Part shown: piece by piece, positions 61,821-64,000 of the stretch
How the letters are laid out: each line of letters opens with the position of its first letter
Numbering within the stretch: the stretch's first letter is position 1
Source: Escherichia phage REP1
Sequence record: OQ174500.1
DNA: 64,000 bases
Reading direction: 5' to 3' (one strand)
The notes under the pieces: generated by a model
Told to the model about the DNA's origin: nothing
Databases searched by the model: none
Seen by the model: only the letters and a program-made list of their open reading frames with translations
Translations under genes and position numbers: made by a program

Positions 61821-62093
61821 ATGAATAAAAACATTGATACAGTTCGTGAAATTATTACTGTTGCGTCTATTTTGATTAAATTTTCCAGAGAAGATATTGT
61901 TGAGAATCGTGCTAATTTTATTGCATTTCTGAATGAGATTGGAGTAACGCATGAAGGTAGAAAATTAAATCAGAATTCATTCCGTAAAATTGTTTCTGAA
62001 TTAACTCAAGAAGATAAGAAAACCCTCATCGACGAATTCAACGAGGGTTTTGAGGGTGTATATCGATATCTAGAGATGTATACGAACAAATAA
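61821..62093 (+). CDS. asiA: anti-sigma-70 factor AsiA
   Basis: 90 aa; MNKNIDTVREIITVASILIKFSREDIVENRANFIAFLNEIGVTHEGRKLN... matches recalled T4 AsiA. Confidence 0.92.
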   Translation: MNKNIDTVREIITVASILIKFSREDIVENRANFIAFLNEIGVTHEGRKLNQNSFRKIVSELTQEDKKTLIDEFNEGFEGVYRYLEMYTNK

Positions 62094-62750
62094 TTATTTA
62101 GCCCTTCCTAATATTCTGGCCGCCTGGGCACATATTGATTCAAGGCGGTCATTACTTATATGATCATTTCTATACCAGTACATGGTTATCGTTCCAGCAT
62201 AGATATTATCCAAATTAAAATATGGACAACTGTACATGTAGTTTATTTCAGGAGTAGGCTTTTTAGTTGGTAAAAAAGCAAATTTTGAGTTGGAATAATA
62301 ATGACGTCCATTTAAATGAACTGTATATTCATCCATAGTTTTATCAACAGGATATCCTCCAAGTGATTTTTCAGTTATTGTTGAAGGTAATCTTCCTTCG
62401 TATGCTATAATATCAACAAAATAGTTTAAGTTTTTAGGGCGGAAAGAATACACCGCACTAAAGTCTGCCTCAGATGATATATGAACTATCTGGAGTTGTT
62501 CCAGGGCGACAGATTCAAAGCGTGCATTTCTTTCCTTTTCAATAATTTCACTGTATGTTTCATACTTTGATTGCTTATAGTACTCAAAGAAACTATCTCC
62601 CCTATACCAAACAATCGCCATCATAAATAAAAGAATTACGACAGCTACCCGGGAAGCAAGAACCTTCCCGGTAGCGTTATCTTTGAACAAGCGATCTAGA
62701 ACACCAAACAGAATATCAGAGGGCGAAAATGATATTCTAGGTGCTGCCAT
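62094..62750 (-). CDS. t: holin T
   Basis: 218 aa; N-terminal cytoplasmic region, single TM (VAVVILLFMMAIVWY), large periplasmic domain. Confidence 0.85.
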   Translation of the reverse strand: MAAPRISFSPSDILFGVLDRLFKDNATGKVLASRVAVVILLFMMAIVWYRGDSFFEYYKQSKYETYSEIIEKERNARFESVALEQLQIVHISSEADFSAVYSFRPKNLNYFVDIIAYEGRLPSTITEKSLGGYPVDKTMDEYTVHLNGRHYYSNSKFAFLPTKKPTPEINYMYSCPYFNLDNIYAGTITMYWYRNDHISNDRLESICAQAARILGRAK

Positions 62751-62769: not shown

Positions 62770-62778
62770 ATTTATTCA
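62770..62778 (-). promoter_or_regulatory. late-promoter-like element (AATAAATA) upstream of t
   Basis: Minus strand reads gaATAAATAtcc about 20 nt upstream of AAGGAGG and the t ATG. Confidence 0.4.
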
Positions 62779-62781
62779 AAA

Positions 62782-63567
62782 TTATACTCTTGAACCATAT
62801 ATTGTACCAACTTTAGTCCAAGATGGAGCATTACCAGTAACAGCTTTACCAGCAGCGCCGCCGTTATATTCTGATCCTTGACCGCGAATATTACATTTAC
62901 CTCCTGCGGCACCGGCATCACCACCATTCCCGCCATTATAGATACCATTGACAGACCCTTTACCGGGCGCAGAAATAGTACCAGCAGTAGCACCCTGTTC
63001 CATATTAGCAGACCCACCAGCAGCACCAAATGGACGACCACCTCCACCGCCAAAAGTCAATCTCATTTGTGAAAAAGGAGAGTAGTATCCGCCGCCACCG
63101 CCGCCACCGCCACCTGCGATAACACCATTGTTATTAATACGTAATCTAGTTCCAATTCCGTTATTTATTGCAGTTCCTCCTGCTCCGCCAGCAGAGTTAT
63201 TTCCACCATTCCCGCCGCGACCCCAAACATGCACGCCTGAATTGATATTAAGTGTCACGTATGCATTAGTTAATGAACTAGGAAAATCTAAGCAAGGTTG
63301 CCCAGCTGATGAAGAAACAATATTTCCTGTAATAGTAACAACAACAGGAGTACTACCTTGAGATTTGAGATAATTTATTAGCGTGTCTTTATTATATGAA
63401 TTACTAGCGCCAATACTGTAATATACTTCTTTAGATTGCCCAGCCATTGAACTCATCCAACCGGGAACTGAAACACGAACTGCTCTCATCGCAGCATCCA
63501 TCCAACGTTGTCCAGTTTCATTCACGGCAGATTCGCCAATCCAGCCAGGAACACCTACAATTGCCAT
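62782..63567 (-). CDS. 38: long tail fiber tip adhesin gp38, T2-type (glycine-rich)
   Basis: 261 aa; conserved N-terminal region then several poly-Gly islands separated by variable segments; lies between 37 and t. Confidence 0.8.
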   Translation of the reverse strand: MAIVGVPGWIGESAVNETGQRWMDAAMRAVRVSVPGWMSSMAGQSKEVYYSIGASNSYNKDTLINYLKSQGSTPVVVTITGNIVSSSAGQPCLDFPSSLTNAYVTLNINSGVHVWGRGGNGGNNSAGGAGGTAINNGIGTRLRINNNGVIAGGGGGGGGGYYSPFSQMRLTFGGGGGRPFGAAGGSANMEQGATAGTISAPGKGSVNGIYNGGNGGDAGAAGGKCNIRGQGSEYNGGAAGKAVTGNAPSWTKVGTIYGSRV

Positions 63568-63578
63568 TAAAAATCCTT

Positions 63579-63596
63579 AGAGGGCCGAAGCCCTCT
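63579..63596 (+). terminator. UUCG-tetraloop hairpin between genes 37 and 38
   Basis: agagggc-cgaa-gccctct palindrome; folds on either strand. Confidence 0.45.
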
Positions 63597-63597
63597 T

Positions 63598-64000
63598 TTA
63601 CATAAGTTTAGATTCAAGTTCTTTTACACGAGAAGAAAGTGTTTTCACAGCTTCAACCAGAAGAGCAATCTGGGATTGAGAAGAAACAGTGAGTATTTTA
63701 TTACCCTTAATATCTTCAACTTCACGAACTGCTTCTGGTAAAACATCTTGCAGTGTTTGAGCCACAATACCCGCTTCAGTTTGAACAATTTCACCGCCTA
63801 TATAGTCAGCTTTATCATAGATTAAACCATCAAGCTGTTCAACCTTTTCAAGAGCATTTTCAATAGGTCTGAAATTAGATTTCAAACGAATATCAGAACG
63901 AATATAAACGTTTGGGGCATTTATATTCATGTCAGAATAAGTGTCACCCGTTTGGAATCTCATTCGGCGTGCGGCATTAGTAATGATATCAAGAACTCCG
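63598..64000 (-). CDS. 37: long tail fiber distal subunit gp37, C-terminal part (truncated by window edge)
   Basis: Frame stays open to the window end; C-terminal segment resembles an intramolecular chaperone/autoproteolytic domain (SDIRLK motif). Confidence 0.7.
   Translation of the reverse strand, partial: GVLDIITNAARRMRFQTGDTYSDMNINAPNVYIRSDIRLKSNFRPIENALEKVEQLDGLIYDKADYIGGEIVQTEAGIVAQTLQDVLPEAVREVEDIKGNKILTVSSQSQIALLVEAVKTLSSRVKELESKLM

Follow-up and report, generated by a model that had tools for sequence, protein, structure and literature searches.

The gp38 receptor-recognizing adhesin of Escherichia phage REP1: a mosaic gene with a length-conserved nine-glycine run

The gene 38 locus and its product

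The window analyzed here is a stretch of 64,000 nucleotides from Escherichia phage REP1 (OQ174500.1). Its backbone is of the Tequatrovirus type and matches Sf24, slur02 and relatives at about 95-96% identity. At its far end lies an adhesin locus, in which gene 37, gene 38 and gene t follow one another on the minus strand. Gene 37, which encodes the distal subunit of the long tail fiber, is present with its 3' end (63598..64000) and runs off the window; its product ends in a Peptidase_S74 intramolecular chaperone domain (PF13884, 4.9e-15), and gp37 is annotated at homologous loci. Gene 38 occupies positions 62782..63567 of the minus strand and starts with ATG, coding for 261 amino acids followed by a stop codon at 62782-62784. 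A Shine-Dalgarno sequence, AAGGA (63574-63578), precedes the start codon by 6 nt. Between this signal and the stop codon of gene 37 (63598-63600), a C(UUCG)G tetraloop hairpin can be formed on the same strand (63579..63596), with a predicted RNA folding energy of -13.4 kcal/mol (z = -2.1) and a match in a scan for terminator-like elements; its counterpart in phage NR1 is annotated as a terminator. Immediately downstream of gene 38 lies the holin gene t (62094..62750, minus strand), identified by the Pfam family Phage_holin_T (PF11031, 1.1e-116). No tRNAs or Rfam families were found in the whole window. Two open reading frames on the plus strand opposite gene 38 (62878-63072 and 63128-63361) were considered and dismissed as genes, their Pro/Thr/Ser/Ala-rich translations being mirror images of glycine codons.

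The product of gene 38 belongs to the class of receptor-recognizing gp38 adhesins known from T2, T6, K3, Ox2 and S16, an assignment that is fully supported. The protein scores above the curated cut-offs of both adhesin families in Pfam, with GP38 (PF05268) covering residues 47-261 (5.8e-71, 239 bits, cut-off 25) and Gp38_N (PF21721) covering residues 1-42 (8.2e-18, 64.6 bits, cut-off 25). Sequence searches likewise matched two proteins of solved structure, gp38 of Salmonella phage S16 (PDB 6F45 chain D, 3.8e-50) and gp38 of the Escherichia coli phage PP01 (PDB 9V85, 7e-32). The first-pass annotation had proposed this adhesin class correctly; for a finer comparison, the protein was aligned with gp38 of T2, T6, Ox2 (accession X05675), M1, RB49, slur07 and FriedrichMiescher. 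The object as such is already known: the identical 261-residue protein is deposited in GenBank as WBY52762.1, 'tail fiber protein [Escherichia phage REP1]', the family has been characterized, and structures of homologues have been solved. The literature documents well how its members combine glycine-rich motifs (GRM) with hypervariable segments (HVS), their polyglycine-II structure and the part they play in host range.

The name gp38 also covers a protein of another kind. In T4 (NC_000866), gp38 is a tail-fiber assembly chaperone, which serves another function and does not form part of the virion. That the window gene encodes such a chaperone for gp37, absent from the particle, is a reading with a single point in its favor, namely that T4 gene 38, too, lies between gene 37 and gene t. 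The proteins themselves show no detectable similarity (BLASTP E = 16 over 23 residues), the Pfam matches are to adhesin families only, and the gp37 of the window ends in the Peptidase_S74 self-chaperone domain. The sequence comparison thus refutes a T4-type chaperone, in line with the first-pass annotation, and we regard that reading as almost certainly wrong.

Domain layout and the nine-glycine run

A set of 110 sequences was used for an AlphaFold2 model of the adhesin, which reached a mean pLDDT of 94.4. These 110 full-length sequences, which also underlie the conservation values below, comprise the window protein and 109 homologues chosen as cluster representatives. A Foldseek search of the PDB with the model returned S16 gp38 first (6f45_D, TM 0.81, E 9e-22), followed by PP01 gp38 (9v85_C, TM 0.75), the sole significant matches, with all others at E > 2. 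The predicted fold has three parts: a helical attachment domain, a beta-helix and a polyglycine sandwich; DSSP labels much of the putative polyglycine-II (PGII) region of the model as coil. S16 gp38 and the receptor-binding domain of PP01 gp38 are 45% and 42% identical to the window protein, respectively; both bind OmpC, and their loops differ from those of the window protein.

The N-terminal attachment domain (residues 1-46; 63430..63567, minus strand), which contains the Gp38_N match, forms three short helices in the model (residues 10-18, 23-29 and 38-41). Each is directly preceded by a tryptophan (Trp9, Trp22 and Trp37), and the first two of these are nearly invariant among the homologues. 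The role of the three tryptophans has been described for S16 gp38 (PMC6851490), and we predict that the domain of REP1 gp38 docks onto the gp37 trimer. It is followed by a central part of the beta-helix (residues 47-115; 63223..63429, minus strand), modeled as beta strands, which occurs in two allelic forms among relatives, YLKS..V..SSSAGQ and WIKA..I..SQSTGV. The specificity domain (residues 116-235; 62863..63222, minus strand), delimited by the conservation profile and by alignment with T6, T2, Ox2 and M1, alternates glycine-rich motifs with hypervariable segments and is predicted to form a PGII sandwich with distal receptor loops. Across the 110 sequences the most variable segments are residues 161-172, 186-211 and 224-235, and the glycine columns are at least 80% conserved. 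A conserved C-terminal segment (residues 236-261; 62785..62862, minus strand), with model strands at residues 243-245, 249-252 and 255-257, closes the beta-helix. It contains S249, a residue private to the window protein: all relatives fetched have threonine at this position, except RB49, which has arginine.

Glycine accounts for 60 of the 261 residues (23%) and for 33% of residues 116-261. The first-pass annotation had pointed to several glycine runs of up to nine residues in this 261-residue protein, and we indeed find one run of nine (G9, residues 152-160; 63088..63114, minus strand), one of five (G5, residues 173-177; 63037..63051, minus strand) and nine GG doublets. G9 corresponds to GRM2 of Trojet et al.; G5 opens the GGGGGRPFG motif (GRM3), in which G174-G177, R178, P179, F180 and G181 are nearly invariant among the 110 sequences. 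Between the two runs lies HVS2 (YYSPFSQMRLTF, residues 161-172; 63052..63087, minus strand), which occupies the place of loop B in PP01 gp38. On the coding strand, G9 is written GGT GGC GGT GGC GGC GGT GGC GGC GGA. The (GCC/ACC)n repeat reported for the plus strand at 63089-63115 is therefore placed one base off, and eight of the nine triplets (63091-63114, 24 nt) are GCC or ACC as described, the ninth being TCC. Tandem Repeats Finder detects within the tract a perfect 9-nt unit, CCGCCGCCA, in 2.6 copies at 63089-63111. Around the tract, the GC content rises to 0.49-0.53 (62800-63200) against 0.35 in the whole window; this follows from the glycine codon content, and we rejected it as a sign of foreign origin.

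A run of nine glycines is rarely expected from composition, having appeared in 577 of 200,000 shuffles (0.29%) of residues 116-261. Among the 110 full-length sequences, the homologous run has exactly nine residues in 58 and at least seven in 101. A HMMER alignment places G9 opposite residues 151-GGGGGGGG-158 of S16 gp38, which the authors of that structure described as helix 3 in a 'polyglycine sandwich' made of ten polyglycine-II helices, with the variable segments as distal loops. PP01 gp38 contains a similar PGII lattice, and its loop B begins straight after the long glycine run. In T6 gp38, deletion of individual motifs or segments (dGRM2/3/4 and dHVS1/2/3) yielded no viable phage. Because of the alignment with S16 helix 3, the lattice in PP01 and the non-viable T6 deletions, G9 is best read as a structural element, probably a packed PGII helix, with the GCC/ACC repeat as its coding footprint.

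Mosaic structure and predicted receptor

The closest known relatives of REP1 gp38 are the proteins of NR1, Sf24, KFS-EC3, IME339, FriedrichMiescher and JK38, at identities of 93-98% (protein) and 89-96% (DNA); they agree with the window in gp38 length and gene order. The window gene differs from this cluster in carrying a slur07-type 5' part on an NR1-type 3' part, in addition to its private S249. From position 64000 in gene 37, through the intergenic region and up to nt 308 of the gene 38 coding sequence, the window and slur07 show 100% identity; beyond nt 308 there are 137 differences. Compared with NR1, there are 26 differences within nt 33-291, followed by full identity over nt 292-744. 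Both switches are statistically strong (Fisher p = 1e-11 and 4e-34), and judged by its sequence, gene 38 is a clean natural recombinant. Since the identity to slur07 ends at nt 308 and that to NR1 begins at nt 292, the crossover can be placed in nt 292-308 (63260..63276, minus strand), which encode residues 98-103, SLTNAY. It precedes the first glycine motif and lies some 150 nt upstream of the G9 tract. Each of the two N-terminal alleles is found in nature with each of the two specificity-domain alleles, the four pairings being represented by the window, FriedrichMiescher, slur07 and RB18.

A junction that lies in conserved sequence, ahead of the first glycine motif, agrees with laboratory crosses. 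In all 14 selected RB5 x RB32 chimeras, the whole HVS block had been swapped by crossovers in the conserved flanks, with none of the 14 showing a crossover between GRM1 and GRM5 (Trojet, PMC3157838). Crossovers at glycine motifs do occur in the gp38 family: in Sf24, a divergent patch has its right edge (last difference at nt 525) inside the G5/GRM3 motif, and in an engineered CM8 x EV240 recombinant gp38 was swapped only 'from HVS2 onwards', which puts the crossover at or near the G9 tract. In this family, recombination shifts specificity, and G9 is not the junction that was used in the REP1 gene.

The first-pass label 'T2-type' holds for the attachment end of the protein and fails for its receptor loops. 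Over residues 1-46 the protein is 98% identical to T2 and 65% to T6, whereas HVS2, HVS3 and HVS4 are 92, 77 and 83% identical to T6 and 0, 23 and 0% to T2; in HVS2, 11 of 12 residues match T6 (YYSPFPQMRLTF). We therefore refine the description to a T6-like adhesin on a T2-like attachment domain. T2 gp38, which is specific for FadL/OmpF, has the same fold class and locus and is 73% identical over residues 1-115; its receptor loops are unrelated, and it has seven glycines followed by AA where the window protein has G9. T6 gp38 has the GRM/HVS architecture and the G9 and G5 lengths of the window protein (PMC3157838). It is 64% identical overall and 79% over residues 116-261, with only 46% identity in its N-terminal 115 residues, an attachment allele of the Ox2/M1 type.

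These loops offer a way to predict the receptor. T6 gp38 is specific for Tsx, and binders of Tsx have one HVS set in common (Trojet 2011, PMC3157838); HVS1-4 of the window protein belong to this set. Over residues 116-261, REP1 gp38 is 99% identical to FriedrichMiescher and JK38, from which it differs by R169K and S249T only. For FriedrichMiescher (Bas39), Tsx is listed as the primary receptor in the BASEL supplement (PMC8594841). For JK38, tsx was a top-scoring gene in RB-TnSeq, with fitness scores of about 15 in both replicates, and the phage is classed as Tsx/Kdo. Because the loops are near-identical to those of two Tsx-dependent phages and the hypervariable segments are T6-like, the primary receptor of REP1 gp38 is most likely the Tsx nucleoside channel.

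An adhesin of the same kind could still use another primary receptor, or Tsx together with others: OmpA, or Tsx/OmpA/LPS as in PST. RB49 gp38, reported to target OmpA, is 73% identical to the window protein over residues 116-261, close to the 79% of T6, and its HVS2 and HVS4 diverge strongly, at 25% and 58% identity. Residue 169, which lies in HVS2, is arginine in the window protein and lysine in both Tsx-validated phages; T6 has arginine there as well, and the remaining loop residues are identical to those of FriedrichMiescher and JK38. None of the loops of the window protein is identical to that of T6, and a T6-like adhesin can gain recognition of OmpA or Yersinia through two or three substitutions in its loops (Trojet 2011, PMC3157838). 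On balance we consider such a different or broader receptor use improbable and retain Tsx as the predicted primary receptor. A literature search on phage REP1 found no phenotype data, and a search for receptor data on RB18 and slur07 showed that neither phage is covered by Trojet 2011 or by the supplements of a 2026 preprint.

The glycine tract and host range

The G9 tract had also been proposed as a hotspot of slippage or recombination that could shift host range. At the DNA level this idea finds weak support, in the perfect 9-nt repeat and in a few metagenomic relatives with in-frame deletions starting in the homologous tract; as a mechanism of host-range change it is unsupported, the run being nine residues long in all close relatives examined and the visible crossover lying upstream of it. 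In its strong form, the proposal would make the (GGY)9 tract behave like a contingency locus, where length changes or crossovers inside the tract reposition the adjacent loop. The tract-length polymorphism among close relatives that characterizes such loci was not seen in 29 phage records and 13 cluster members listed. Gene 38 measures 786 nt in each of the 29 records at a nucleotide identity of at least 88.9%, and a length of 261 residues is shared by the 13 full-length proteins that are listed in the 90% cluster. In the seven clade sequences compared codon by codon, the window included, the tract invariably consists of nine glycine codons, with synonymous GGT/GGC/GGA differences inside it. 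As its codons drift synonymously while its length stays constant, the tract would appear to be held at nine by purifying selection.

More distant relatives present another picture at the DNA level. Among the 109 homologues, six representatives have in-frame deletions with an endpoint that falls within the homologous tract, which is therefore not mutationally inert. In one pair (P0006 compared with P0003), 9 nt are lost in frame between 8-9-nt direct repeats, with zero other nucleotide differences; in another (P0023 compared with P0014), the 9-nt loss removes one copy of the tandem GGTGGCGGT, again between 8-9-nt direct repeats and with one other difference. A 15-nt deletion in the tract is found in P0033, and larger deletions in P0012, P0101 and P0117 extend from G9 to the next glycine motif, with loss of HVS2. 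Among pairs of at least 93% amino acid identity, indel events mostly start at residues 151-153. A role of the DNA tract as a site of microhomology deletion is thus plausible, and the edges of exchange in Sf24 and in the CM8 x EV240 recombinant fit a tract at which crossovers can occur.

Several observations argue against extending this to host range. The repeat in the tract is short and imperfect as a whole. In the alignment, the run falls opposite the central PGII helix of S16, and T6 did not survive removal of the corresponding motif. All six deletion variants derive from assemblies (metagenome or Logan) that provide no evidence of viability, and one of the contigs also encodes an abnormally short gp37 of 477 residues. 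We saw no sign that tract deletion variants persist in cultured phages or have a changed host range. The documented host-range mutations are point changes in loops: Q161H/R, W189R, Y159H, N163H and T207I in PP01, and Q206L in RB68, which moves the phage from OmpF to OmpW. PST and T6 gp38 likewise differ by Q167R, M168I and G208I (Trojet, PMC3157838). We found no report of an altered glycine-run length in the literature on host-range changes. Taken over the sequence, its relatives and the literature, there is no sign that the nine-glycine run of REP1 gp38 acts as a host-range switch, and we judge a contingency-like role of the tract unlikely. A milder possibility is that the GGY tracts of G9 and G5, as microhomology sites, generate viable in-frame variants at low frequency, shortened by one PGII turn (three glycines) or lacking loop B/HVS2, whose altered or broadened receptor use would add a standing host-range pool to point mutation and module swapping. 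To this we attach a very low probability.

The reading that we prefer, and hold to be probably correct, is that of a Tequatrovirus gene 38 adhesin with Tsx as its predicted receptor and G9 as a structural PGII helix whose length is under purifying selection. On this reading, each long tail fiber would end in a gp38 monomer that caps the gp37 trimer and docks onto it through its N-terminal three-helix domain, with a tryptophan before each helix. The middle and C-terminal parts would form a small beta-helix, from which two long excursions build the polyglycine-II sandwich. The glycine runs, including the run of nine, would be its tightly packed helices, and the variable segments between them the distal loops that touch the receptor; the GCC/ACC repeat would then simply be the GGY-codon coding of a poly-Gly structural helix. 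Host range would change mainly in two ways, by exchange of the whole specificity module through homologous recombination in conserved flanks or glycine motifs, and by point mutation in the loops. REP1 gene 38 is itself the product of such a module exchange.

For the field overall these results change little. Should viable tract-length variants that change host range be real, they would constitute a modest new mechanism, relevant to the engineering of phages for therapy. The analysis makes small additions to what is known of the family: a natural example of specificity-module exchange, and rare in-frame deletion alleles with endpoints in the glycine-coding tracts of uncultured relatives. Its practical value lies in a confident prediction of Tsx as the receptor of phage REP1.

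RNA elements and reading frames around gene 38

The junction between genes 37 and 38 carries on the minus strand a 7-bp hairpin closed by a C(UUCG)G tetraloop (AGAGGGC-UUCG-GCCCUCU, 63579-63596). It starts two bases past the stop codon of gene 37, its end directly abuts the Shine-Dalgarno sequence of gene 38, and RNA folding gives it a free energy of -13.4 kcal/mol (z = -2.1). In the close relative NR1 the hairpin is annotated as a terminator, and in REP1 it may act as an mRNA-stabilising or attenuating element between the two genes. A second hairpin, terminator-like and with a stem of 14 bp, is found 3' of gene t (62019-62051, minus strand). It falls within the 3' end of a convergent asiA-like open reading frame on the plus strand (61821-62093), and its equivalent in NR1 is likewise annotated as a terminator.

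Gene 38 shares its DNA with three mechanically called open reading frames, two on the plus strand (62878-63072 and 63128-63361) and one in another frame on the minus strand (62772-63053). As genes they are unsupported; their products are rich in Pro/Thr/Ser/Ala or in Leu/Val and mirror the Gly-codon tracts. Across the whole window (1-64000), neither tRNA genes nor Rfam families at the gathering threshold were detected.

Codon and residue choice within gp38

The Gly runs of gene 38, both the nine-residue G9 tract (63088-63114) and others in 62863-63222, over-represent the codon GGC. It accounts for five of the nine codons in the G9 tract (binomial p = 0.002) and for 11 of 32 in all runs of two or more Gly (binomial p = 0.0007), compared with a background of 11.7%, defined as its share of Gly codons in the window's 44 other long open reading frames, those of 150 aa or more. 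Neither the G9 tract nor the five-residue G5 run uses GGG, and gene 38 contains no G homopolymer longer than 4 nt. Possible causes of the GGC excess are tRNA choice or the avoidance of frameshift-prone G runs.

Codon 249 (62821-62823) encodes Ser in the context APSWTKVG, a residue that no other fetched sequence has. Of the relatives retrieved, RB49 has Arg and all others have Thr at this position, as do T6, Ox2 and M1; T2 has Asn. Ser249 is located in the conserved C-terminal β-helix segment, outside the receptor loops.

A natural mosaic patch and candidate deletions

Gene 38 of Shigella phage Sf24 differs from that of JK38 at 46 positions within nt 249-525 of the coding sequence and at nearly none elsewhere. 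Nature thus supplies a second mosaic patch in this stretch, which ends on the right in the G5/GGGGGRPFG motif.

Three metagenomic gp38 alleles, P0012 (L020:318-1022), P0101 (L021:1501-2217) and P0117, carry an in-frame deletion that fuses the long Gly tract with the next Gly motif and removes the whole hypervariable segment HVS2 (loop B). Since T6 without HVS2 is reported to be non-viable, these alleles may represent defective genomes, true altered-specificity variants or assembly errors. The Logan contig L021, which bears P0101, also encodes directly 3' of gene 36 a gp37 of just 477 aa (L021:33-1466), whereas gene 37 in the annotated tequatrovirus records fetched spans 3.8-4.0 kb (about 1250-1340 aa). 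The short gp37 may reflect gp37 repeats that collapsed during assembly, or else a large deletion of natural origin, similar to the gp37 deletions selected in evolution experiments with PP01 (PMC6027323).
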